Assembly: GCA_035560815.1 (NCBI GenBank)
Contig: DATMYR010000067.1
Location: 1 to 33,577, forward strand
From: Syntrophomonadaceae bacterium
GTDB lineage: Bacteria; Bacillota; Syntrophomonadia; Syntrophomonadales; Syntrophomonadaceae
DNA: 33,577 nt
Direction: 5' to 3'
Part shown: piece by piece, positions 16,059 to 31,131 of the stretch
Numbering within the stretch: the first letter of the stretch is position 1
Layout: the number at the start of each line of letters is the position of its first letter
Translations under genes and position numbers: made by a program
Notes under the pieces: model-generated
Databases searched by the model: none
What the model was told of the DNA's origin: nothing
Seen by the model: the letters and a program-made list of their open reading frames with translations, nothing else

Positions 16059-18023
16059 ATGAAGTACTGTACCAATTGTGGGCAGCAACTACCGGATGAA
16101 GCGGGGTTCTGTACCAGTTGCGGAACGGCTCAAAAGACAGCAGCCGTTGCCCCACCCCCGGTAGACCCAAGTCCGGTGACAACAATGCCATCTGCGGTGA
16201 ACCCAATTCCAGTGACGAATGCAGTCCCTCCGGCAGATCCCAGTCCGATGACAACGGCTCCAACTACAGCGAATCCGGTTCCGGTAACTACTGCAGCGCC
16301 CCCGTCTAATCCTGAGTCGGTGTCCATCCCTTATCAGGGTTTACCGCTGGGAGGGACGACCTATCCAAATGGGGCGCCGGGCACTCCGTTGGCTACGGCG
16401 GTTCCTCCGAAAAAGAGGCGTACATGGTTATGGGTTACCGGAGGAGTTGTATTGTTTCTGCTCTTAGCATGTGCAGCAGTCTACAGTATGGGGAATTTTT
16501 CGGGGCCCAGATCACCCAGGTTGGCATCTGCCAATACAGAGATGTTCTTGTGCGTGAAACCCAATATGTTTCAGGTCAACAACTTCAACCACCTGAGAGA
16601 CATATATATGGCTGTACCGGAAGTCAAAGATGCGGTAGAAAAGTTTAAAAAGCAGATGCAGGAAGAAAATGACATCGATTTTGACAAGGATATTGATCCC
16701 TGGTTGGGGAAAGAAGCTGCCCTCTTTATGCCCAAGCTCGATAACCAGGATAAGGTGGCCATGGCGATTGAGTATAAGGATGCCGAAAAAGCGAAAGCTT
16801 TTATGGCCAAGGCGGAAAACAATAAAAGCGCCAAACGCGAAACTTATAATGGCATTGAGATTACCACCTATCAAGGGGATGCTTCTATAGCCCTGGTTGA
16901 CAATTTTATGATTATTTCCAGTGACAGGGCTTTGCTGTTGGAGACCATTGACCGCAGCAAAGGAAAAATCAAAGACAATCTTGAATCCAATGCAGACTAC
17001 CAGCGAGTTTTGAGCGCCCTGCCTTCGAACCGGAGCGCGTTCTGGTACGTTAACTTAAAACAGGCCATGGCAAGCAGCAGTAAAGCTGGAATGGGAGACA
17101 TTTCCGGACTGAAAGACCTGTCAATGGCGATGCAATCACTGCAGGGAGCTGGGGCTGCTATTACGCTTGAATCCAATGGGGTGCGCGGGGACTATGTCCT
17201 GGCCTTTGATAAACAAGGAGTTCCCGATTACTTGAAAAACAGTGATAAGGGCAAAGAGGAGCTGAAAGCCACTTTGGATATGATGCCCGAAGAAACCCTG
17301 GGATTTTTGTATAGTTCTTCTCTGGTAAATATTGTACAGGAGAGCCTGAAAAATCCGGGCAGCAATTCCGACCTGGCTCAAATAAAAAGAAGTTTGAATG
17401 AAATACAGTCTGCTACCGGAATCAACGTGCAGACCCAGGTGCTTGATATGCTGCGGGGAGATGCAATTATAGCGGTCACTCCCCACTACGGAGACTTTTT
17501 CGGTCAGAGCGGTGCTCCGGTTAGCATGGTTCTGGCCCTGGGGGTGCAGGACCAACAAGCAGCCACCCGAAATACTGAGGATGTTCTGAGTAAAATGGAA
17601 AAGTTTGATCTGAAAGTGGATAGAAAAACTGTCAATGGCAGCAAGATGTACAATATCAGCCAGCAGTACGGGGGGGATTCTATTAGCCTGGGTTTGGGGA
17701 ACAAGCTTCTCATATTGGGCTCATCCCCAGAGCTTACCAACATAGTTTTGAGTAAGCACACCACCACGCTGGGAGCAAATTCCGACTTCAAGAAAGCATT
17801 TGATCCATTTCCCGGTGCCTGGGCGCCGCAGCTCTATGTGAATACCACAAAGGCTTCCAAAGCGGTGAGTGACAGTCTTACCGGGTCCGACCAGAGTGAG
17901 TACCGTAAACAGGTAATGCCCTGGATGGGACCGATGAAATCAATCTCCGCTGCCGACTCCGCCTGGGATCAAAGCAAAGCCGTGACCCAGGGAGCTTTCT
18001 TTATCCGGATCGAAAAACCGTAA
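16059..18023 (+). CDS. Membrane-anchored protein: N-terminal zinc-ribbon (CxxC ... CxxC), Pro-rich repeat linker, TM helix, large extracytoplasmic domain (DUF3352-like)
   Basis: MKYCTNCGQQLPDEAGFCTSCG zinc ribbon. PVTT-type repeats. Hydrophobic WLWVTGGVVLFLLLACAAVY. GAGCGAGG ribosome-binding site before the ATG. Confidence 0.8.
   Translation: MKYCTNCGQQLPDEAGFCTSCGTAQKTAAVAPPPVDPSPVTTMPSAVNPIPVTNAVPPADPSPMTTAPTTANPVPVTTAAPPSNPESVSIPYQGLPLGGTTYPNGAPGTPLATAVPPKKRRTWLWVTGGVVLFLLLACAAVYSMGNFSGPRSPRLASANTEMFLCVKPNMFQVNNFNHLRDIYMAVPEVKDAVEKFKKQMQEENDIDFDKDIDPWLGKEAALFMPKLDNQDKVAMAIEYKDAEKAKAFMAKAENNKSAKRETYNGIEITTYQGDASIALVDNFMIISSDRALLLETIDRSKGKIKDNLESNADYQRVLSALPSNRSAFWYVNLKQAMASSSKAGMGDISGLKDLSMAMQSLQGAGAAITLESNGVRGDYVLAFDKQGVPDYLKNSDKGKEELKATLDMMPEETLGFLYSSSLVNIVQESLKNPGSNSDLAQIKRSLNEIQSATGINVQTQVLDMLRGDAIIAVTPHYGDFFGQSGAPVSMVLALGVQDQQAATRNTEDVLSKMEKFDLKVDRKTVNGSKMYNISQQYGGDSISLGLGNKLLILGSSPELTNIVLSKHTTTLGANSDFKKAFDPFPGAWAPQLYVNTTKASKAVSDSLTGSDQSEYRKQVMPWMGPMKSISAADSAWDQSKAVTQGAFFIRIEKP
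16155..16315 (+). repeat. In-frame tandem Pro/Thr/Val-rich repeat (about 5 units of A/V-D/N-P-x-P-V-T-T)
   Basis: Repeated GACCCAAGTCCGGTGACAAC / AATCCGGTTCCGGTAACTAC-type units visible at DNA level. Encodes VDPSPVTT / VNPIPVTN / ADPSPMTT / ANPVPVTT. Confidence 0.7.
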
Positions 18024-18052
18024 ACTAGTTTCAATCATAATATGAACTATAT

Positions 18053-18089
18053 GAGGCGGCCTTAAAGGCCGCCTCCTTTTATAGCACAT
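18053..18089 (+). terminator. Rho-independent terminator (GAGGCGGCCT / AGGCCGCCTC palindrome, then CTTTTA)
   Basis: 10-bp perfect GC-rich stem with a 3-nt loop (TAA) followed by CTTTTATAG (4-nt U run), 30 nt after the stop at 18023. Confidence 0.75.
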
Positions 18090-18181
18090 AGGTGCAAAGA
18101 GCATCCAGAATTATTTATAAATATAGCGAACCTTTTTGTTCTTTGCTGTGTATACCAGTTAGCTATTGGTATGGAAGGAAG

Positions 18182-18730
18182 ATGATTTTGCAGTCCATTA
18201 CCCAGGAACAGGCCGAAGCGATATTCCGAGAATATTCAAGCTATGTTTATCGGGTTGCACTTTTTATATCTCGATCCAGCACCATGGCCGAGGATATCAC
18301 CCAGGAAACCTTCCTACAGGTGTTTCGCAAGTACGGCAGTTATGATGCCACCCGACCTATTGGACCATGGTTGTACAAGATTACTCTAAATATAACCCGC
18401 AACACCTTGCGTAAACAAAAGTGGCTGCAGCTGTTTATGGAAATCCCTGAACAGAAATCCACCCATTCGATTGAGGAGGAAGTACTGAAAAACCAGATAG
18501 ACCAGGAATTGTGGCAAGAAATTAATCACCTTACATTAAAAAGTCGTGAAGTAATCGTACTGCATTACTATTTGGGCTTAAAGCTCATTGAAATTGCCAA
18601 AGTCCTGGATATTCCTCTGGGAACCTGCAAATCCAGACTTCATACGGCAATGAATTCTCTGACCAAAAAACTCCGAGCCAACGATCATTTCATTTCTTAC
18701 CAGGGAGGGGATCAGCATGAAAAGCTATGA
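18182..18730 (+). CDS. ECF-subfamily RNA polymerase sigma-70 factor
   Basis: Region 2 (YVYRVALFISRSSTMAEDITQETFLQVFRK ... GPWLYKITLN) and region 4 (LTLKSREVIVLHYYLGLKLIEIAKVLDIPLGTCKSRL). ATG at 18182 after GGAAGGAAG. 3' end overlaps the next gene by 14 nt. Confidence 0.85.
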   Translation: MILQSITQEQAEAIFREYSSYVYRVALFISRSSTMAEDITQETFLQVFRKYGSYDATRPIGPWLYKITLNITRNTLRKQKWLQLFMEIPEQKSTHSIEEEVLKNQIDQELWQEINHLTLKSREVIVLHYYLGLKLIEIAKVLDIPLGTCKSRLHTAMNSLTKKLRANDHFISYQGGDQHEKL

Positions 18731-19700
18731 ATCCGAAATAGAAGCACTGCTGAATGATAAATTGAATGAATATGAGCCGTCAGTACAGTTCGGCCGGGTT
18801 TGGAGTGAATACCGTAAAAATTATATGAAGGAGTCTGCGATCAGGCGTCTTTTTAAAGCTCCCAGGATTGCAGTGGTGGTTCTGGCAGCTCTTCTCATTA
18901 TTGGTTTTGTCTTGAAACCGCGTGTAGATAAAATCGACTATCCTTTTGTAGATGACCCGAGAGTGATTGGCAGGTGGCAAACTGTAGATTGTGTCAAAAC
19001 CATCGATCAATTTGTCCCGGGACAAAAGGCCCTCCTGGATCAGTTGCCTGTCAATCAACTGGTTTTCGTAAAAGGCGGAAAAATGCTCATGCAAAATGAA
19101 GATACCAATGGCAGCTTGGTGCCCAGTGTTTCTACGTGGACCAAAGGATTGATGATATATATAGTAGATAAAACTGCCAGTCAATATGAGATCAGGGAAG
19201 TCAATGGCACTGCGTATATGTTTCTCGAATGGAAAACCGGGGATTATGTTTATTGGCATCGCAAGCCATCCTATTATGTCCTTGTGAAAATAGATGATCA
19301 TGACTACTCTGACTTCAAGGTTGATGTAAAAGAAGATAAAATTGACTATCCTTTTGAAGACGACCCCCAGTTGCCTGGAACATGGCAGGCTGTCGATGCA
19401 GTATCCAGCATGGATCAGTTCCAGCCTATGGATCAGCAATACCCGGGGGTGCTTTATTTGCAGCGGTTGGATATCAAAGAAAAGGGCAGCATCTCAGAGG
19501 TTACAACGAATGGGCAGAACCCGGAAGGCGATCTTACCTGGACCAGGGGCTTGATAATCTCTAAGCAAGAAAAGACGGCAAGCCATTACGAAATAAAAAA
19601 GTTCGGAAGAGACACTTACTTATTCTATGAGTGGAAAAGTGGAGATTACAAGACAAGGGGAATGAAGCCCAAATACTATGTATTAAAACGGATAACATAG
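18717..19700 (+). CDS. Putative anti-sigma factor: N-terminal cytoplasmic segment, one TM helix, two tandem copies of an uncharacterised roughly 125-aa domain
   Basis: Overlaps the sigma gene. Strong ribosome-binding site (CAGGGAGGGG). TM segment IAVVVLAALLIIGFVL. Repeats begin KIDYPFVDDP / KIDYPFEDDP and end YYVLVKI / YYVLKRI. Confidence 0.75.
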   Translation: MKSYESEIEALLNDKLNEYEPSVQFGRVWSEYRKNYMKESAIRRLFKAPRIAVVVLAALLIIGFVLKPRVDKIDYPFVDDPRVIGRWQTVDCVKTIDQFVPGQKALLDQLPVNQLVFVKGGKMLMQNEDTNGSLVPSVSTWTKGLMIYIVDKTASQYEIREVNGTAYMFLEWKTGDYVYWHRKPSYYVLVKIDDHDYSDFKVDVKEDKIDYPFEDDPQLPGTWQAVDAVSSMDQFQPMDQQYPGVLYLQRLDIKEKGSISEVTTNGQNPEGDLTWTRGLIISKQEKTASHYEIKKFGRDTYLFYEWKSGDYKTRGMKPKYYVLKRIT

Positions 19701-21708: not shown

Positions 21709-22350
21709 CTAAAGGGCTTTCAGCAATGCTGTAACATAACGGTCAAATGCATCCTTATCCTGGAACAGTTGATTCCTCAAGGGAGTGCTTAATTCCAACT
21801 GCACACCCGCTCCTTCTCTATTGCGGTTGCAGATATTGTCCGGGTCTCTCCCCCCAAGGTTGCCGGGTGCCCTCACTACAGAAAATCCGGCCGATTCCAA
21901 TTGCTGTTTCACTTTCTGTCCCAGAGCATTGTCTCGGCCGCCTAAATTGGTCACAGCCTTTTGGGTACCGTAACACCCATGGATAGAAAGAGTTTGGTCA
22001 GATTGAGCGACCATGCTGCATGCGATGGGTTCATCAAAATGGGTGGAAGTAATATGCAGTGGTCTGGGTTTGAGCCCAACAAAGCTATAAAAATCATAGC
22101 CTCCCTGGCTGGCTACGGCCGAGGCCACCTCACTGGTTTCGCGTTCGATGGATCCGCCATGGATGGCGAGTATACTGGTGGACGAACCCCTATCCTGAGT
22201 GATGATTTGATAATCAACATTGGGAGTCTCCCGGGAATGAAGCTGTTCGAAGTTTTTGTATGTATCAGCCCGGGCTTGTTCATAGGAACCGAATGTGATG
22301 AATATAAGAATTAGAAAGGTAAATGAAAACAAGTACGAAATTTTCTTCAA
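21709..22350 (-). CDS. Poly-gamma-glutamate hydrolase family protein (PghP/YjqB-like zinc amidase) with signal peptide
   Basis: SILAIHGGSIE ... LHITSTHFDEP ... LSIHGC ... NLGGRDPDNICNRN ... GVQLELS matches the PghP/UPF0714 family. Hydrophobic N-terminal signal. TTG start after AAGGAGAG. Confidence 0.8.
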   Translation of the reverse strand: MKKISYLFSFTFLILIFITFGSYEQARADTYKNFEQLHSRETPNVDYQIITQDRGSSTSILAIHGGSIERETSEVASAVASQGGYDFYSFVGLKPRPLHITSTHFDEPIACSMVAQSDQTLSIHGCYGTQKAVTNLGGRDNALGQKVKQQLESAGFSVVRAPGNLGGRDPDNICNRNREGAGVQLELSTPLRNQLFQDKDAFDRYVTALLKAL

Positions 22351-22565
22351 TATCTCTCCTTCTTTCTGTCAATAACCGCGACTGGAGGACTTTCTATCAC
22401 CTCCAATAGGATAGATTCAACATGGTCGACCTGCGATACAGCATTCCTGCTCCCGAAGAAAAACGGTTGGGTATTTCCTTTATAGCCTATCGGCAGGGTG
22501 GTTGTCGAAAGTAAAGCCCGGTAATCCAGGGAGATGGTGGGGGACTGAAGAGAAAATGGCTTCAA
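22347..22565 (-). CDS. Hypothetical 72-aa ORF overlapping the PghP-like start by 4 nt (doubtful)
   Basis: Overlap pattern only. No ribosome-binding site and no motif recognised. Confidence 0.2.
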   Translation of the reverse strand: MKPFSLQSPTISLDYRALLSTTTLPIGYKGNTQPFFFGSRNAVSQVDHVESILLEVIESPPVAVIDRKKERY

Positions 22566-22972
22566 AGGAAACTGGTGCGATGGAGTTTGCTGGAAGGAAA
22601 ACCGGTTAGCAGAACTCAGGTTCGTGCAGGGAGCCCATAATCCGTAGGGATGCGGAGTAAAGACCTATTTGAACTAGATAAAGGAAATGGGCGTTTTGTG
22701 AAGAATTATTACGAAAAATGATATACAATGAAGAATAGAGAGGATATCACAACACCAGAGACTTTCCTTAAATTGACATTGTCGATGTTAAATATTACCT
22801 TTTACATAGGTTCACACGCCACAAAGTGGTTTAGAGTACGCGGATACTGTCCTCGGGCATGACGGTTTCTTTATGCTTCCATATGCTCCGAGGGAGGGTT
22901 TTCTTCTCTTTAAACCCGGTTGTCTGAGGGCTTGTTGGTTGCCATGAAATAAACACGATGGGGAGGTTTACC

Positions 22973-25207
22973 ATGGACTTATTTATTGGCATGTCGTTAA
23001 TCGCTCTGGGTATTTTTCTTCTATTCTTTTTAATCTGGCTGTCAAATTTCTTGGTAGTCATTGGGGGAACTCAAATCGGCATCGTTGAACGAAAGTATCT
23101 GGGCCGCCAGCTTCCCAGTGACCGGGTTATCGCCCAGAAGGGGGAAATAGGGGTTCAAGCTCGAACCCTCGGCCCTGGCATTCATGTTTTCTTCCCCTTT
23201 TTATTTTCAGTTACCAAACAGAGTTTTATCGTTATCCAGGAAGATAGCATCGGTTTGGTGGAAGCCATAGATGGACGACCACTTACTTCGGGGCATATCT
23301 TTGGCCGCTCAGTTGAAGGACACAATTTCTATCAAGATGCGGAAGCTTTCCTGCAAAATGGAGGGCAGAAGGGGCCGCAGAGTGACTATATCCCCCCCGG
23401 TACCTATCGCATCAACACCCGTCTTTTCAAGGTAACCCTGGTCAGTGCGATTAGCATTCCGGAAGAAGCCATTGGAATTGTAGAAGCAGCAGATGGTGTG
23501 CCGATTCCGGCGGGAAATATCTTTGCCCGTTCGGTGCCTGGCCACGGATTCTACCAGGATGCCGAAGCTTTTCTAGAGAACGGAGGGCAAAAAGGACCGC
23601 AGACCGATTATCTCCCACCTGGGACGTACCGTATCAATACCAAGTTCTTCAAGGTGACTTTGGAACCGGTTGTCAGTATTCCCCAGGGAAGTGTGGGCGT
23701 GGTAACAGCCACGGACGGATCGCCTATCGATCCGGGCCGCCTGTTGGCCCGCGCCGTGACCGGGCATAATAATTTCCAGGATGGGACTTCATTCCTCATT
23801 AATGGAGGACAGAAAGGTCCCCAGTTGGATATACTTTTACCCGGTAAATACCGGATTAATTCTCGCATGTTTCAGATGACGCAATACCCGGCCATTATGA
23901 TCAGCTCAGGGAGTGTGGGATTGGTTACCGCAAAGGATGGTGAACCCCTGCCGGCCAATGAGTTAATCGCCGAATCAGTGAGCGGTCACGAAGGCTACCA
24001 GAACGCCGCCGGTTTCCTGAACAATAAAGGGCAAAGAGGGCCGCAATTGGATGTGCTGCCTCCCGGGACCTATTATATCAACCCCTACATGTTTGCCGTC
24101 GATCTAGACGCAGCAGCAGTGGTCAACCAGGGAGAAGTAGCTGTGATTATATCCAACGTAGGCCAGCGGCCTCCCCAGAGTGCCGCGGTGGGGGAACCGA
24201 TATTGAGCGGGGACCGAATCGAGTCTTACGTAGTAGAAAAGGGATATAGAGGCATTCAATTGGAGGTAGTGGGACCGGGCACCTATTATATCAATAAGCG
24301 AGCTTATATTCCCATTATTGTCAAAACCACCAACACTACCATTGACTGGGATGATGAATCGCCGGAAGGCAGCTTCAATCCACTGAATGTAACTTCAAAA
24401 GATGGGTTTATCATTAAGGTGGGAGTCAAAGTAGTTATACGGGTGCAGCCCGAGCAGGCGCCTTATATGGTAGCCCGTATCGGCAGCATCGAAAACCTGG
24501 TCATGAACGTGATCCATCCCTTGATCGATAGCAGTTTCCGCAACCAGGCCTCCTCAACTGAGGCTATGAAGTTCTTACAGGATCGTCATGAGCAGCAGGA
24601 GAAAGCCCTGGAGAGAGTACGGAACGAACTGGAAAAGTATCATGTGGAAGTCTTAAGTGTTCTTATCTGCCAGATTCAGATTCCTGAGGCCTTGATGGAA
24701 ACCCAGACCAACAAGGTAATTGCCGCCCAGCAGCAGGATATGTATACCCAGCAGAGGGAAGCGGAAGTTAAGCGTATTGATATGGAGCGCACCCGGGCGC
24801 AGGCTAACAAGCAAGGGGAGATTGTCTCCGCCGAAGTGGGCGTCAAGGTGGCAGAGCAGGAAAAAATCAAGACGGTAACGATCGCTGAAGGAAACTCCAG
24901 CCGGGTGAAACTGGAAGGCCAGGGCGAGGCGGAGAAGATTCTGGCCATTGGCAAATCCACTGCTGAAGCCTATGAATTAACCCGTGCCGCCATCGGGCCG
25001 GAAAGCGTAGCTTTCATCGAATTGATGAAATTGATATCTGGCGGGAACGTTAAAATTACTCCGGATATCGTAGCCGGGGGCGATTCTGGCTCCCTGCTTA
25101 ACATTATGCTGGCTCGCATGTTAGCTCGAAACAGTGTTCCAGTCTTAGGACAGGCAGAAACTGCTGCTACCAATGGGGCTGCCACCGGAAGCGGCGAAAA
25201 GGGATGA
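22973..25207 (+). CDS. SPFH/band-7 (flotillin-like) membrane protein with five inserted tandem repeats of about 80 aa and a Glu/Ala/Gln/Lys-rich coiled-coil tail
   Basis: N-terminal TM helix. SPFH start (VVIGGTQIGIVERKYLG ... LGPGIHVFFPF). Repeats IGLVEAIDGRP ... GGQKGPQSDYIPPGTYRIN occur five times. SPFH C-lobe and flotillin-like EA-rich C-terminus. ATG at 22973 after GGGGAGG. Alternative ATG at 22958. Confidence 0.85.
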   Translation: MDLFIGMSLIALGIFLLFFLIWLSNFLVVIGGTQIGIVERKYLGRQLPSDRVIAQKGEIGVQARTLGPGIHVFFPFLFSVTKQSFIVIQEDSIGLVEAIDGRPLTSGHIFGRSVEGHNFYQDAEAFLQNGGQKGPQSDYIPPGTYRINTRLFKVTLVSAISIPEEAIGIVEAADGVPIPAGNIFARSVPGHGFYQDAEAFLENGGQKGPQTDYLPPGTYRINTKFFKVTLEPVVSIPQGSVGVVTATDGSPIDPGRLLARAVTGHNNFQDGTSFLINGGQKGPQLDILLPGKYRINSRMFQMTQYPAIMISSGSVGLVTAKDGEPLPANELIAESVSGHEGYQNAAGFLNNKGQRGPQLDVLPPGTYYINPYMFAVDLDAAAVVNQGEVAVIISNVGQRPPQSAAVGEPILSGDRIESYVVEKGYRGIQLEVVGPGTYYINKRAYIPIIVKTTNTTIDWDDESPEGSFNPLNVTSKDGFIIKVGVKVVIRVQPEQAPYMVARIGSIENLVMNVIHPLIDSSFRNQASSTEAMKFLQDRHEQQEKALERVRNELEKYHVEVLSVLICQIQIPEALMETQTNKVIAAQQQDMYTQQREAEVKRIDMERTRAQANKQGEIVSAEVGVKVAEQEKIKTVTIAEGNSSRVKLEGQGEAEKILAIGKSTAEAYELTRAAIGPESVAFIELMKLISGGNVKITPDIVAGGDSGSLLNIMLARMLARNSVPVLGQAETAATNGAATGSGEKG
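23240..24430 (+). repeat. Five in-frame tandem repeats of about 240 bp inside the flotillin-like gene
   Basis: Recurring DNA and protein units (e.g. TTCTACCAGGATGCCGAAGCTTTTCT / GGAGGGCAGAAAGGGCCGCAG and FYQDAEAFL.NGGQKGPQ). Units 1-2 are nearly identical, 3-5 progressively diverged. Confidence 0.8.
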
Positions 25208-25326
25208 GAAAACGCTTGCGGTTCACGGTAATGAAGGGGAATCAGTCTCGAATAGTAGGCACCGTGCATCCTTAAACGAATAAATAGTAAATATTTGATA
25301 GAAATACTGAACCCCCGGAGGTGCAT

Positions 25327-26268
25327 GTGCTAAAAGAGAGAATTTTAGGGGGATTATTGGGTGTAGCTGTAGGCGACGCACTGGGTTTGCCGGTGCAGTT
25401 TAACAGCCGCAAAGCAATGGAACAACGACCTGTAACGAATATGGAGGGTTGGGGTGTTTTCAACCTGCCACCGGGGGCCTGGAGTGATGACACCTCCTTG
25501 ACCTTTTGCCTGGCGGAAAGCCTCGCGGAAAAAGGCCTCGATATCGAGGATACAGGTCAGCGTTTCCTGCGCTGGTACACAGAGGGCTACTGCACCCCTA
25601 CAGGAGTTTCCTTTGATATCGGGAAGAGCACCAGGCAGGCTATGGAGCGCATCCGTACAGGATGCCCGGCAGCGGTAGCGGGAGGCACAGGGGAAAGAGA
25701 CAACGGCAATGGTTCACTCATGCGTATTCTGCCTGCCGCTCTCTATTTTCATCGGGATCGTCAACCAGATCTGGCTGCAAAAATATGGGCATTCTCCTCC
25801 ATAACCCACGCGCATCCCCGGGCCTGCTCGGCCTGTTACCTATATGCTCTCCTGGCGAAAGAGCTTCTTCAGAGTTCCAGCGCAGCGCAAGCCTATATGA
25901 AAATATGCAGTATGGAGTTGTCTCCCGGCTTGGATCCTGGTGAGCGCGATCACTTTCAACGACTGCTTGGAGGAAGCTTGCATTTGCTGCCCAGGGATGA
26001 AATTGAATCAGACGGTTATGTTGTTCATACCCTGGAAGCTGCCCTATGGTCCCTATTAAATCAAAGGAATTTTGCTGATACCGTATTGGAAGCCGTTAAT
26101 TTAGGTGATGATACAGACACTACAGCAGCTGTGGCTGCAGGCCTGGCTGGGCTGTATTATGGTCTGAAAGGAATTCCCCTGAAATGGCAACAGGCACTGA
26201 TTGGCTACGATATTCTTCTGAGAGTGGCCGATCTCTTCGCAGAAAAGATTAAAAAGAACTTTGAATAG
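25327..26268 (+). CDS. ADP-ribosylglycohydrolase family protein (ARH/DraG-like)
   Basis: ILGGLLGVAVGDALGLPVQF ... SDDTSLTFCLAESL ... DTDTTAAVAAGLAG are hallmark ARH motifs. GTG start at 25327 after CCGGAGG. Alternative GTG at 25321. Confidence 0.85.
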   Translation: MLKERILGGLLGVAVGDALGLPVQFNSRKAMEQRPVTNMEGWGVFNLPPGAWSDDTSLTFCLAESLAEKGLDIEDTGQRFLRWYTEGYCTPTGVSFDIGKSTRQAMERIRTGCPAAVAGGTGERDNGNGSLMRILPAALYFHRDRQPDLAAKIWAFSSITHAHPRACSACYLYALLAKELLQSSSAAQAYMKICSMELSPGLDPGERDHFQRLLGGSLHLLPRDEIESDGYVVHTLEAALWSLLNQRNFADTVLEAVNLGDDTDTTAAVAAGLAGLYYGLKGIPLKWQQALIGYDILLRVADLFAEKIKKNFE

Positions 26269-26487: not shown

Positions 26488-27093
26488 TTGGGTGTAGAGG
26501 AAATCGCTGCGGAAGACAGGAGTGGCATCTTCGTAACGGGAGCTATTGTAGATGTCGAAACAACTGGTTTCAGCCCTGAGTATGACGAAATCATTGAGAT
26601 CTGTATCATCCTTTTTGTTTTTAATAGAGAAACCGGAGTGGTTAGCCAGATCATTGAAGAGTATGTAGGGCTGCGTGAGCCGGCTTGTGGAATACGACCC
26701 GGGGCTGCCCGGGTTAATGGCATTACCGTGGCCGATGTCCAGGGAAGGGATCTTGACTACGCTAAAGTGTCGGCAATCCTTGAGCAAGCTGAATTCCTTA
26801 TCGCTCATAATGCTTCCTTTGATCGCGGTTTCCTGGTTCGCCTTTTTCCCCAGGTTGCCATCAAATCCTGGTTTTGCTCGATGTCGGGGATTAACTGGCG
26901 GGGTAAGGGGTTTCCCAACCGCCGTCTTCAGGACCTATTATCCTGCCATGATATCAGGCCAGGAAGGGCTCACCGGGCTCGGGACGATGTGCGAGCCACC
27001 CTGGAACTCCTGTCTTTCAGCCAGGAATGGGGGGCGACCTACCTGTCTGAACTGCTGATAGGGCGGAGGATGAAGGCCAACAAACGGAGGTGA
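26488..27093 (+). CDS. DnaQ-like (DEDDh) 3'-5' exonuclease
   Basis: Exo I VDVETTG, Exo II IAHNASFDRGFL, Exo III HRARDDV. TTG start 9 nt after AAGGAG. Confidence 0.75.
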   Translation: MGVEEIAAEDRSGIFVTGAIVDVETTGFSPEYDEIIEICIILFVFNRETGVVSQIIEEYVGLREPACGIRPGAARVNGITVADVQGRDLDYAKVSAILEQAEFLIAHNASFDRGFLVRLFPQVAIKSWFCSMSGINWRGKGFPNRRLQDLLSCHDIRPGRAHRARDDVRATLELLSFSQEWGATYLSELLIGRRMKANKRR

Positions 27094-27779
27094 AACATGG
27101 CTCAAAAGTCGCAGATGGCAGTCATGACTGCAAGATGATTGAGCTGAAACAGCTTGCCAGTGCTGTCCACCAATACTTCTGGCAAAATAAGCTGTTATTG
27201 GTGCAATCACTAACTGAGGGCCAGCAACTCCTGGAGGCGCTGATACGGGAAGGGATAGCCTGGGCTAATCTGCGACCCATCACACCGCTGGAGTTGGCTC
27301 TGGAAATGATTCAACCAGATATGCAGCAACGGGGTTTAGAACGAATCGAGCCGGATCAACTTTTGTTTATGTTGAACGAAATCATCGCGGGCCTTGAACG
27401 GCGAGGGGAGATTGTCTATTTTCGACAACTCCTGGAGACGGGCGTCTTGACCCAGGTGATCGTGAAGAGCATCACTGAATTACGTCTGACCGAGGTGGAG
27501 GCCGCTACCCTTAGTCCCGAGCAACTTGGGGACCCCCAAAAGGCAAGGGAAATGGGCCTTATCCTCAACGCCTACGATCTGGAGCTGGAAAGCCGAGGCT
27601 TGATGGATGATGCAGCGGTCTTCCAGCGCGCAAATGGACTACTTTTAACCGGTACTAACTTATTGTCAGAAAAAGTAATTATTATACCTGAAAAACTACC
27701 ACTATCAACAATAGCGAATCATTTTGTCAGCCAGCTTAAGAAACATTCTGGAATCATCCTCTGGGAAAACCCGCTGTAG
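27090..27779 (+). CDS. Hypothetical protein translationally coupled to the exonuclease (ATGA overlap), possibly a truncated remnant
   Basis: No recognisable catalytic motif. The reading frame runs into an AT-rich tract (about 27650-27930) and ends without a terminator. Confidence 0.4.
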   Translation: MKHGSKVADGSHDCKMIELKQLASAVHQYFWQNKLLLVQSLTEGQQLLEALIREGIAWANLRPITPLELALEMIQPDMQQRGLERIEPDQLLFMLNEIIAGLERRGEIVYFRQLLETGVLTQVIVKSITELRLTEVEAATLSPEQLGDPQKAREMGLILNAYDLELESRGLMDDAAVFQRANGLLLTGTNLLSEKVIIIPEKLPLSTIANHFVSQLKKHSGIILWENPL

Positions 27780-27930: not shown

Positions 27931-30723
27931 TTAAATATTCTTCCATTCACCCCGGTTCTGATCAGGAAAGTTCTTACAGCGTATTTCACCCGGTCTGCTG
28001 GCCACCTGGGCCTGGCAAGACTCGGGACGGTTGTTGCTGGCCCAGATGTGGCAGATAGGAATGTTCATTTCTTCAGCCCGGCCTACAATCTGTGCTGTCA
28101 CCGAAGAATACTTCCGGCGATTGCCGTCCCATACTACCATGATCACATCGCTGTGGTCAGCGATATAATGTCCGGTCTTTAAATAGGCTGTTTGGCGGGT
28201 AGGGGAGAGTGGCATCTCAATTACTTCAATAGCACGATTGGACAACCAGTAGTTGAACTCGTTGCGCAATTCAGCTCCCTGAGGATCTGTTCGGTAATCA
28301 TCACTGATGCCGAAATCGTTGATGTATTGTTCCAGGGCGTAAGGCAATACGGCAATGAGTCGAGAGGCTTCTATTTTCAATAATTCACGGGCCACCAGGC
28401 GGTCGGCTCCCAGAGCCAGAGGGGAAAAGACGGTAAGATAGTGCTCGGGGTACTCTTGCTTGATATAGGCAATAGCATGATCCACTGCCTCCTTAAGTAT
28501 ATCCATCTCCTCCGGGTCCAGGTTTACGTGCCCGGTAATTCCTATCCTCAGCATCTCCCGGTGACCCAGATATGTCAAGTCATTGAACTCTTTCATGTTT
28601 ACATGCATCTCAATAATGTGATCGGGGGGCAGGCTGGATAGTTCGTATTTGCGTTTGTCGGCCAAACTGCTCATCTTGAGCAAATTCTCAAGAGAACGCG
28701 ATCCATGGCGATAGCGGGTGGTAAGAAGGAAGGCGTCCAGGACTCCGGAGTCGATTTCAAACTGGCTGCTATGCATGATCTGCGGCGCATTGGACTCAAG
28801 AGATTGGCGCAGGATAAAAGCCCGGCGGATCATATAGAGCCGGTCTTCAACGGTATTGGGGTTGCCGTTGATACCTCGAATGTTGATGAAGGCCCGCAAG
28901 CGGCTGATAAAATCAGGCTTTTTGGCCGCCCGATCAGAGGAACTATCTCTCTCACTGAATTCTTCAAAGGAGTGTCGGGTGGCTCCGGCGAAAACATAGA
29001 TGCCGCCGCCCAGTGGGTGGGGAAGGCCCTGATACGTGAATTCGCCATCCTGCATGGGAGCCAGAAAATAACGGAGCCATCCCAGGGGCTGGCCCTGGCA
29101 GGGAGTATCGAATTCATCCCAAAAAACCAGTGGCATTTTCCCTTTCAGGTTCAGGTCGCGAACCTGGTCAAAGGCGGTCTGCAATTCCTCAGCCGAATCA
29201 AACTGGGAGAGGTTAAAAGTAAGCTGAGCATCCTCGCCAATGCCCAACCCTTTAGCGATTTCTTTAATGACAAATGACTTACCCGCTCCCGGCTGCCCGA
29301 AGACCGCTACGCAGATCGGCTTTTCCGGCCTTTTTAGGCGCAGGTAATCACGCATGGCATTATTAACGCTGCGCACCCCTTCTATTTCCTGACGGTCAGC
29401 ACTGCTCCAGGCTCCCACCGTCTCTACCGGAACATTCAATAAAGCTGCCTGGGGCCCATTCACTACGATGTTTCTTGCCAATTCATTGACCGCCCGAATG
29501 CTCTGAGGGTCTTGCACACAGCACTCTCGGTCCAGGTTTTTCCATAACGCATCTTCCAGAATGGTCCACCTGCCTGGTTTACTGCGAGCGGTATTTTTAT
29601 CATCCACAAAGATGCCCAGTTCACTGACAAGATCCAGGAGAGGCAAACCGGTGGCACTTTTCTTACCGGTTTTCAATTCCTGATAAGCGTAAACCATGGT
29701 CTGGTAAGGAAACTGCAGGTGTTTATGCTCATCGTGCTCCACCACGTCGTAGCCCTTGATATGAAGGAGGCGGGCTAGTTCTAAACCAATGCGGGTGGCT
29801 TCAGTCCAGTCCACGCCCTCCGGGTTTTCTGCCCAGGAGACGGCCAATGCCCCAATAATACAGCTATTGTCACCGATGATCTGACCGGGGAACTGGCTGG
29901 CGAAATCACCTTCTTGCCCCCGACGGTCGAAGATCAGGGTATTGACCTTCTGCCCTACAATGACAGCACCGCTTAGCCCGATGGGGACAATAACCTGATG
30001 GTATTTTATATTTTTTCCTGTGGAATCTGCAAAGGGGCAGCTGGGACTCAATACAGCTTTGACTACTTCCTCCAGCATGCGCTCCCAGGATAAGGAAATG
30101 CCCACCTTAACCGCACAAGCCCGCAGGTCACTCAAGGAGCTGACGATCGTGGTTTTCTGTGCTAGACCTAATTCTATAATCCGGCTGAGCAACGGGTTTT
30201 CCTGTCCGTTGTTATACTGGCCGAGTTTCAGAATGATATGAGCCGGGCTTTTTTCTCCCCCGGTCAAAACTTCAGGCCATCCTGCCGGACAGTGACTAAA
30301 ACCAAGACCACTGTCCTGAATCAGCAGCAGGTCGGGATATCCGCTTAGACGGGCGGAAGGGTAATCCCAGTTACCAGTTTCAAATTCGTGCCATTTCCAG
30401 AGGCGAAAGGAGTTCTGATGCAGTCCCGGGTTGGCAAACTCTTTCCACAAAGTCCAGGAGGTGGTGATGCATCGGTCTTTGGGTCGCTTTAATAGGTCGT
30501 CATCCAATATTGCGCCTTCCACCCGGGCTATCTGGGGCGAGATCATTTCATTCAACAATTCTAGTATCAAGGCCGATCCACCCGGCTTGGAACTGAGCCG
30601 CACCCGGGAATCCTCATCTTGCCGCTGCCAGTAGTAGACGCCCCCGTGTACAGTCACGTCATCGTGGTGAATCCGAAACCAGTCTACGGTGGGATCGCCG
30701 CACACCTGTATCAATAAACACAT
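27931..30723 (-). CDS. Large three-part protein: uncharacterised N-terminal region (about 480 aa), AAA+-like P-loop ATPase, C-terminal SLOG (SMF/DprA-LOG) Rossmann-like domain
   Basis: Walker A VAVFGQPGAGKSF, Walker B MPLVFWDEFD, sensor-like VFAGATR. C-terminal VFSPLALGADRLVARELLKIEASRLIAVLPYALEQ aligns with the DprA/SLOG core (SGLA.GID ... AH ... AL ... IAVL ... GLD). ATG at 30721-30723 follows AAAGGCGGGAGG. The 34-codon ORF-track extension lacks a ribosome-binding site. Confidence 0.8.
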   Translation of the reverse strand: MCLLIQVCGDPTVDWFRIHHDDVTVHGGVYYWQRQDEDSRVRLSSKPGGSALILELLNEMISPQIARVEGAILDDDLLKRPKDRCITTSWTLWKEFANPGLHQNSFRLWKWHEFETGNWDYPSARLSGYPDLLLIQDSGLGFSHCPAGWPEVLTGGEKSPAHIILKLGQYNNGQENPLLSRIIELGLAQKTTIVSSLSDLRACAVKVGISLSWERMLEEVVKAVLSPSCPFADSTGKNIKYHQVIVPIGLSGAVIVGQKVNTLIFDRRGQEGDFASQFPGQIIGDNSCIIGALAVSWAENPEGVDWTEATRIGLELARLLHIKGYDVVEHDEHKHLQFPYQTMVYAYQELKTGKKSATGLPLLDLVSELGIFVDDKNTARSKPGRWTILEDALWKNLDRECCVQDPQSIRAVNELARNIVVNGPQAALLNVPVETVGAWSSADRQEIEGVRSVNNAMRDYLRLKRPEKPICVAVFGQPGAGKSFVIKEIAKGLGIGEDAQLTFNLSQFDSAEELQTAFDQVRDLNLKGKMPLVFWDEFDTPCQGQPLGWLRYFLAPMQDGEFTYQGLPHPLGGGIYVFAGATRHSFEEFSERDSSSDRAAKKPDFISRLRAFINIRGINGNPNTVEDRLYMIRRAFILRQSLESNAPQIMHSSQFEIDSGVLDAFLLTTRYRHGSRSLENLLKMSSLADKRKYELSSLPPDHIIEMHVNMKEFNDLTYLGHREMLRIGITGHVNLDPEEMDILKEAVDHAIAYIKQEYPEHYLTVFSPLALGADRLVARELLKIEASRLIAVLPYALEQYINDFGISDDYRTDPQGAELRNEFNYWLSNRAIEVIEMPLSPTRQTAYLKTGHYIADHSDVIMVVWDGNRRKYSSVTAQIVGRAEEMNIPICHIWASNNRPESCQAQVASRPGEIRCKNFPDQNRGEWKNI

Positions 30724-31131
30724 CCTATCAACCTCCCGCCTTTTGCCCGGTGTTGAAACAAAAGAAGCCTTTCCGCCGGCAGACCGGATTGGAAAGACCC
30801 CATGATTTTCATAATCATGCCCCACCGGCCATGATTGCTTCTCGGTAGCATTTATTATATCATATCAGGGCATCGCTTCCAGGTAACATCTGTTAACGAT
30901 TCGGGCACAGGAGAAAGTCACGAACATATTCGTGGTATAATAAGGGAAAAATGGGATAGGCGTTCGAATAATCATGTATCGCTCGCTGCTTTTGTAGTAC
31001 GATTTGCTCGTCAATCATCCCAAGATTGACGATTTCTACGATAACTGGCGTCTCATTGCATAAATCTTAGGCAGTGTATGAATCACCTGGGCAATAAAGC
31101 AGGCTATAGATGAAGGGATACGATATAAATC

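Follow-up and report, generated by a model that had tools for sequence, protein, structure and literature searches.

What does a bacterial SPFH gene encode when its product carries a long extra segment ahead of the canonical domain, and what could that segment be for? The gene in question lies at 22973..25207 on the + strand of Syntrophomonadaceae contig DATMYR010000067.1 (assembly GCA_035560815.1), whose 33,577 nucleotides (nt) form the window analysed here. Its product, 744 amino acids (aa) in length, is a membrane-anchored member of the SPFH superfamily (stomatin/prohibitin/flotillin/HflK-C), in which the small membrane-side SPFH1 module is present six times in tandem. The layout consists of a transmembrane helix, six SPFH1-type modules, the SPFH2 domain, a wall helix spanning about 115 residues, and a flexible tail.

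The open reading frame (ORF) on the + strand can be read from 22958 (749 aa) or from 22973, and both readings end at 25207. A GGAGG motif at 22962-22966 is placed 6 nt ahead of the ATG at 22973. A first-pass annotation, made from the letters alone, had given the coordinates 22973-25207, and these hold: the product is 744 aa plus a stop codon, and is identical to HWP97570.1, an NCBI entry named 'SPFH domain-containing protein' from a Syntrophomonadaceae metagenome-assembled genome (MAG). More than 6000 proteins match it at E <1e-5. The only Pfam match is Band_7 (PF01145), with 72.5 bits against a cut-off of 23.6, at aa 412-603 of the 749-aa reading. Since Band_7 covers just the C-terminal part, the extra length lies N-terminal to the canonical SPFH core. 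The NCBIfam scan found nothing significant. The Band_7 match above the Pfam gathering score, the N-terminal membrane anchor, and the long C-terminal helical region are all features of the SPFH superfamily.

The extra segment is composed of repeats, all encoded on the + strand. Self-comparison of the gene gives an exact period of 222 nt or 74 aa, with four full units in register (R1-R4), each of which matches the repeat hidden Markov model (HMM) at E 1e-41 to 1e-43, well outside anything expected by chance. R1 (aa 93-166, 23249..23470; E 3.6e-43) and R2 (aa 167-240, 23471..23692; E 2.2e-43) are of the same repeat type. According to the orthology matrix, R3 (aa 241-314, 23693..23914) corresponds to the penultimate repeat and R4 (aa 315-388, 23915..24136) to the last repeat of relatives with three or five repeats. 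A weaker copy stands on either side of the array. R0 (aa 35-92, 23075..23248), placed by a MAFFT module alignment, is a short SPFH1-type module that lacks the 17-aa loop/helix insert; in hhalign it matches the repeat profile with 95% probability (E 6e-9). R5 (aa 389-462, 24137..24358) is a degenerate module that matches with 85% probability (E 7e-7). It is the canonical SPFH1 element joining SPFH2, and the Band_7 match begins within it. Profile comparison thus gives six modules in all, four full and two weaker. The first-pass annotation had counted five repeats of about 80 aa resembling the first SPFH beta element. The tandem arrangement and the resemblance stand, but the unit is 74 aa, and there are four full repeats and six modules. 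No meaningful match was obtained for the repeat profile against the PDB or for 18 diverse repeats against Pfam (E up to 10). The 74-aa repeat lies outside every Pfam model, a point of relevance to genome annotation.

The divergence of the copies bears on their age. Pairwise identity among R1-R4 is 46-70% in aa, 51-65% in nt, and 28-38% at third codon positions, the last being close to random. The closest pair, R1 and R2, shares 70% of its aa, 65% of its DNA, and 36% of its third codon positions. The best blastn segment within the gene reaches 72% over 148 nt, Tandem Repeats Finder reports no repeat, and at the DNA level a 56-nt core alone is detectable, with 61-71% identity and 222-nt spacing. 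Because third-codon identity is near random and even R1 and R2 share just 65% of their bases, the duplications are, on sequence grounds, ancient. A recent duplication was rejected on the third-codon identity among R1-R4. The earlier claim of near-identity between copies one and two at the DNA level is incorrect. Copies that have diverged this far cannot be an assembly artefact, as an assembler would neither collapse nor inflate them.

Repeat numbers were compared by clade with the repeat HMM in the query and its 120 best homologues (121 proteins). Four full repeats are found in 24 proteins of 719-744 aa, namely the query and the 23 proteins nearest to it (62-92% identity), which are Syntrophomonas-like. 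Three full repeats are found in 16 proteins of 640-693 aa from Peptococcaceae and Thermacetogeniaceae. Five are found in 81 proteins of 773-902 aa from Geobacter/Geomonas, Syntrophus, Chitinilyticum, Paludibacterium, and others. Of the 549 copies, 546 are 74 aa long. By an identity matrix, the last repeats of the three groups are orthologous to one another, as are the penultimate ones, while the first repeat type has one, two (R1 and R2 in the query), or three copies, depending on the clade. This pattern suggests that repeat number is constant inside a clade and was altered between clades through duplication of the first repeat type.

The first-pass annotation had proposed recent duplication and repeat-number polymorphism by slippage. 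The locus would then be a recently expanded, slippage-prone one, whose repeat number varies among strains like that of a contingency gene. The 70% aa identity of R1 and R2, the most similar pair, and the presence of three, four, or five repeats depending on the clade are in line with such a locus. The low DNA identity of the same pair, the lack of any longer or closer DNA-level match than the 148-nt segment, copies diverged beyond assembler collapse or inflation, and the exactly four full repeats in 23/23 orthologues make it highly improbable. The orthologues uniformly carry the repeats as a conserved, though unnamed, subfamily, which is the pattern that the annotation had itself set against its proposal.

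The wider family is large. A search of 1.84 billion cluster representatives with the repeat profile (E up to 0.001) detected the repeat in 1350, each with 2-15 matched stretches, and full copies range from 1 to 13 among the 85 complete wider-family proteins. By these matches, the repeat array is a conserved feature of a large, unnamed, and uncharacterised bacterial family. Three giant relatives (P0121, P0122, and P0123) have 1638-1802 aa and 11-13 full repeats (12-15 matched stretches), which exceeds the nine of the vault protein; their repeats are followed by a Band_7 domain and then a C-terminal VWA domain. The sole annotation of P0121, a protein of the cyanobacterium Symploca sp., is 'VWA domain-containing protein'. 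Four relatives (P0122, P0126, P0130, and P0135) are without any hydrophobic segment and have the first module right at the start. P0130 and P0135, at about 840 aa, are near the vault protein in length, which makes them candidate bacterial proteins of soluble, vault-like particles. Orthologues with 72-84% identity (loci L001 and L003; P0010, P0014, P0019, and P0021) occur in MAG bins labelled Chitinophagales, Ignavibacteriales, Saccharibacteria, and Acidobacteriota. These odd labels point to mis-binned contigs or horizontal transfer.

An AlphaFold2 monomer model was built from a 48-sequence alignment. Its mean predicted local distance difference test score (pLDDT) is 75.9, with 85-93 across the repeats. 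The model begins with an anchor helix at aa 2-24 (22976..23044; pLDDT 86-90), and a hydrophobic N-terminus is also present in all but one of the near relatives. Six beta modules follow, of which the full repeats each have about five strands and a short helix. Behind them are the SPFH2 alpha/beta domain at aa about 463-570 (24359..24682), the counterpart of the vault 'shoulder', and long wall helices at aa 572-638 and 651-689 (24686..25039), a coiled-coil or 'cap helix' region for which the family profile marginally matches the C-terminus of flotillin-2. The C-terminal tail at aa 691-744 (25043..25204) is predicted with low confidence (pLDDT <50).

In a Foldseek search of the PDB, the top ten matches to this model are all major vault protein (MVP), at E 3e-15 to 7e-13 over about 800 columns. 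Structures from crystals that contain just vault repeats R1-R7 match at E 2e-8 with a template modelling (TM) score of 0.55-0.57. The repeat stack of the predicted fold is thus shown to superpose on vault repeats R1-R7. The SPFH2 and helix part of the model also gives matches to prohibitin, erlin, HflK/C, stomatin, and flotillin. The relationship of the two groups is known: vault repeats R1-R9 are described as homologous to SPFH1, the shoulder to SPFH2, and the cap helix to the SPFH coiled coil (PMC12915596), and the first two of these homologies are also described in PMC11348225. All solved SPFH complexes are rings or cages, among which the vault is called the exception in having no membrane association (PMC12624060); its many SPFH1 copies also set it apart.

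Which way the protein faces can be approached from its N-terminus. The hydrophobic stretch is present in 120/121 of the query and its best homologues. There are no K/R residues ahead of the transmembrane helix and about one just behind it. Five relatives (P0121, P0127, P0128, P0134, and P0144) have a signal-peptide-like segment, then ~60 residues, a transmembrane helix at about residue 88, and then the repeats. A signal peptide followed by a transmembrane helix implies an N-out, C-in topology, with a short extracellular N-terminus and cytoplasmic repeats. From the positive-inside rule and these relatives, the bulk of the protein is probably cytoplasmic.

Taken together, the gene product is probably best explained as a single-pass, membrane-anchored SPFH scaffold with six stacked SPFH1 modules, in which the vault domain order is combined with a transmembrane helix. 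As in every solved SPFH assembly, the protomers would pack side by side as a ring, and the helices would close a dome seated on the membrane. Stacked on one another, the six modules would build a tall, multi-tier barrel wall that separates the SPFH2 ring from the membrane. Such a wall would lift the SPFH2 ring and the dome far off the bilayer and give a larger enclosed space above the membrane patch, and repeat number would set the height of the wall. The first-pass annotation had expected module expansion to change cage geometry, and as an expectation this is supported.

Several points weigh against this explanation. The likeness of the repeats to vault repeats is drawn from a predicted structure, and a model of three repeats only has low confidence (pLDDT 61) and matches the vault protein weakly (E 8e-3). 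Neither Pfam Vault (PF01505) nor MVP_shoulder (PF11978) is matched by the whole protein (E up to 1) or by the 18 repeats (E up to 10), and no MVP chain in the PDB was reached by the repeat profile or by the family profile. Cage formation and wall height are deduced by analogy. The neighbouring genes differ in every locus examined, that is, in the window and in four related loci. Finally, the topology comes from a charge rule, and the well-studied SPFH proteins HflK/C, prohibitin, and erlin are oriented away from the cytoplasm (PMC12624060).

The last point would also suit an extracytoplasmic, adhesin-like protein. In such a protein, the N-terminal signal anchor would hold a rigid beta-repeat stalk that projects the SPFH/helical part or partner-binding domains outward, with no cage wall. 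The giant relatives add to this with their C-terminal VWA domain and with matches below threshold to a surface-adhesin repeat, that of CshA, but no single stretch of the CshA matches passes alone. The positive charge lies behind the transmembrane helix and not ahead of it, and the relatives with a signal peptide and then a transmembrane helix put the repeats inside the cell. The relatives that have no transmembrane helix are without any secretion signal, and in structure the repeat array is closest to the laterally packed wall of the vault and not to an adhesin stalk. An outward-facing stalk is therefore considered unlikely.

A further question is whether the protein is simply a flotillin. The first-pass annotation had called it flotillin-like, which is correct in so far as it is a membrane protein of the SPFH superfamily; membership among the flotillins themselves does not follow. 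As an ordinary microdomain scaffold of the FloT/YqiK type, its extra modules would be a neutral spacer without effect on assembly or function. Some sources label the relatives 'YqiK', the family profile touches the C-terminal helices of flotillin-2 (a marginal E of 0.0017), and the N-terminal anchor and the probable cytoplasm-facing orientation are shared. However, the flotillin models (Pfam Flot and NCBIfam flotillin) give no match at E up to 1, and no NfeD-type gene adjoins the gene in the window or in the four related loci. Each 74-aa unit also keeps 11 invariant and 6 near-invariant positions across diverged copies. This strong conservation argues for selection on the modules themselves, and the probability of an ordinary flotillin is low.

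The membrane-anchored scaffold with a multi-tier wall remains the preferred explanation, and it can be extended to the family as a whole. The family may be a membrane-bound counterpart of the vault, with tall 'half-vault' cages of 2-15 modules capped by the cytoplasmic membrane. The members without a transmembrane helix (such as P0130 and P0135) would form free vault-like particles, and the vault architecture would have arisen, perhaps in parallel, among bacterial SPFH proteins by repeat expansion and then loss of the anchor. This extension is speculative and rather doubtful. SPFH cages (HflK/C, flotillin, prohibitin, erlin, and stomatin) and vaults have only recently been seen as one structural family. 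A large and widespread bacterial family that joins many SPFH1 copies to a membrane anchor, and in which some relatives are anchorless, would be an intermediate form between them. Two long-standing questions, the purpose of the repeat barrel and the origin of the vault architecture, could then be tested in bacteria, including cultured ones (Geomonas, Paludibacterium, and Chitinilyticum). The range from 2 to 15 modules would also provide a natural series of wall heights for studying how the size of an SPFH cage is set.

The surroundings of the gene vary. Because the neighbourhoods are not conserved, no client or partner can be named. Small upstream ORFs are found in two related loci and were considered as an operon partner; they are unrelated to each other. 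Downstream of the gene in the window, on the + strand, are an ADP-ribosylglycohydrolase (25321-26268), a DEDDh/RNase T-type exonuclease (26488-27093; PADLOC models DEDDh and PDC-S48), and a 229-aa protein without a family (27090-27779). They are followed on the - strand by a convergent gene for a 964-aa protein with a weak AAA-ATPase match only (27931-30825). These downstream genes could be a small defence-type cluster, without a link to the SPFH gene in other genomes. Vaults carry PARP, and a vault-like link to the ADP-ribosylglycohydrolase was considered, but it was dropped as the gene is missing from the other loci. An anti-phage defence role of the SPFH protein itself was set aside, as PADLOC gave no match for it. 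In Geomonas sp. Red32 (L019:1-5928), genes for DUF898, M48 peptidase, DUF5684, an unknown protein, a rhomboid protease, and a small ORF stand on the same strand, and then comes the five-repeat orthologue. A link to membrane proteases is possible at this locus and is not seen in the Bacillota loci. Farther upstream in the window (16059-19700, +) are a zinc-ribbon/DUF3352 protein of 654 aa and then an ECF-type sigma factor. A 327-aa ORF that matches no family overlaps this sigma factor gene at its end, a position typical of an anti-sigma factor.

The 5' untranslated region of the SPFH gene had been described as holding a stem with a U-tract that might act as an attenuator. The hairpin is there (about 22850-22894), with a U-rich run at 22898-22911, so that the element as folded spans 22850..22911 on the + strand. 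It is unsupported as a functional element. Its fold is no more stable than that of shuffled sequences (z -1.54 locally, with 15/200 shuffles as good; z -0.10 for the whole leader), and terminator and promoter scans found nothing on the + strand upstream of the gene. Rfam has no match in the leader, and no alignment is obtained with the DNA upstream of orthologues that share about 83% protein identity. An attenuator or riboswitch was rejected on the terminator scan, the fold z-scores, and the unconserved upstream DNA; a lineage-specific leader element is conceivable. The only Rfam match, a sub-threshold one to SAM-III (SMK box), lies antisense inside the coding sequence (23183-23255, -; 26.8 bits against 45, E 0.003) and is most likely due to chance.

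In comparison with named systems, the closest in layout is MVP. Both have tandem SPFH1-type beta modules that lead directly into SPFH2, the 'shoulder', and then into a long cap helix, in the same order. The first-pass annotation regarded repeats inside an SPFH protein as a feature not known from FloT, FloA, and YqiK; these do lack it, but a layout with multiplied SPFH1 was already known in MVP and had been overlooked. The differences from MVP are clear. A transmembrane helix precedes the first module here, whereas MVP has a free R1 end that makes the waist contact, and vaults are soluble closed particles (PMC12624060). There are six modules instead of nine, the repeat unit of 74 aa includes a loop/helix insert, and the sequence matches neither of the Pfam models for MVP. 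No genes for the vault partners PARP4, TEP1, and vault RNA are found nearby, and Rfam has no vault RNA match in 22000-25500.

FloT/FloA and YqiK share with the present protein the N-terminal anchor, Band_7, the long helical C-terminal region, and a probable cytoplasm-facing orientation. Flotillins have one SPFH1 module, in contrast to the six here, and are usually paired with an NfeD gene in an operon of the yuaF / yqiJ type (PMC2636767), which does not adjoin this gene. HflK/C, QmcA, stomatin, prohibitin, and erlin also have a single SPFH1 module and are only 250-420 aa long. Several of them are oriented away from the cytoplasm and have FtsH or NfeD as a partner; the present gene has no such linked partner.

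In the literature searched, no bacterial family is described that is membrane-anchored and has multiplied SPFH1 modules, and in a 12-subfamily survey of prokaryotic SPFH proteins (PMC2636767) the term 'repeat' has no relevant match. For archaea, an ECOD-based survey describes the architecture 'MVP repeat + SPFH + tail', with one repeat, as widespread (PMC13607799). MVP homologues are known from a few Myxococcales, Cytophagales, and Oscillatoriales among bacteria, and from Asgard archaea, where they have five repeats (PMC3762200; bioRxiv 10.1101/872010; PMC12962969). Like the present family, these prokaryotic homologues have several repeat modules ahead of a Band 7 or shoulder domain. They were found through their similarity to eukaryotic MVP, the bacterial ones by sequence searches and the Asgard ones first by reciprocal best structural hits and then by sequence-based searches and phylogeny, whereas the present family is without a sequence-level MVP match. 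It also differs from them in being anchored by a transmembrane helix in the near clade (120/121) and in being much larger, with 1350 cluster representatives.

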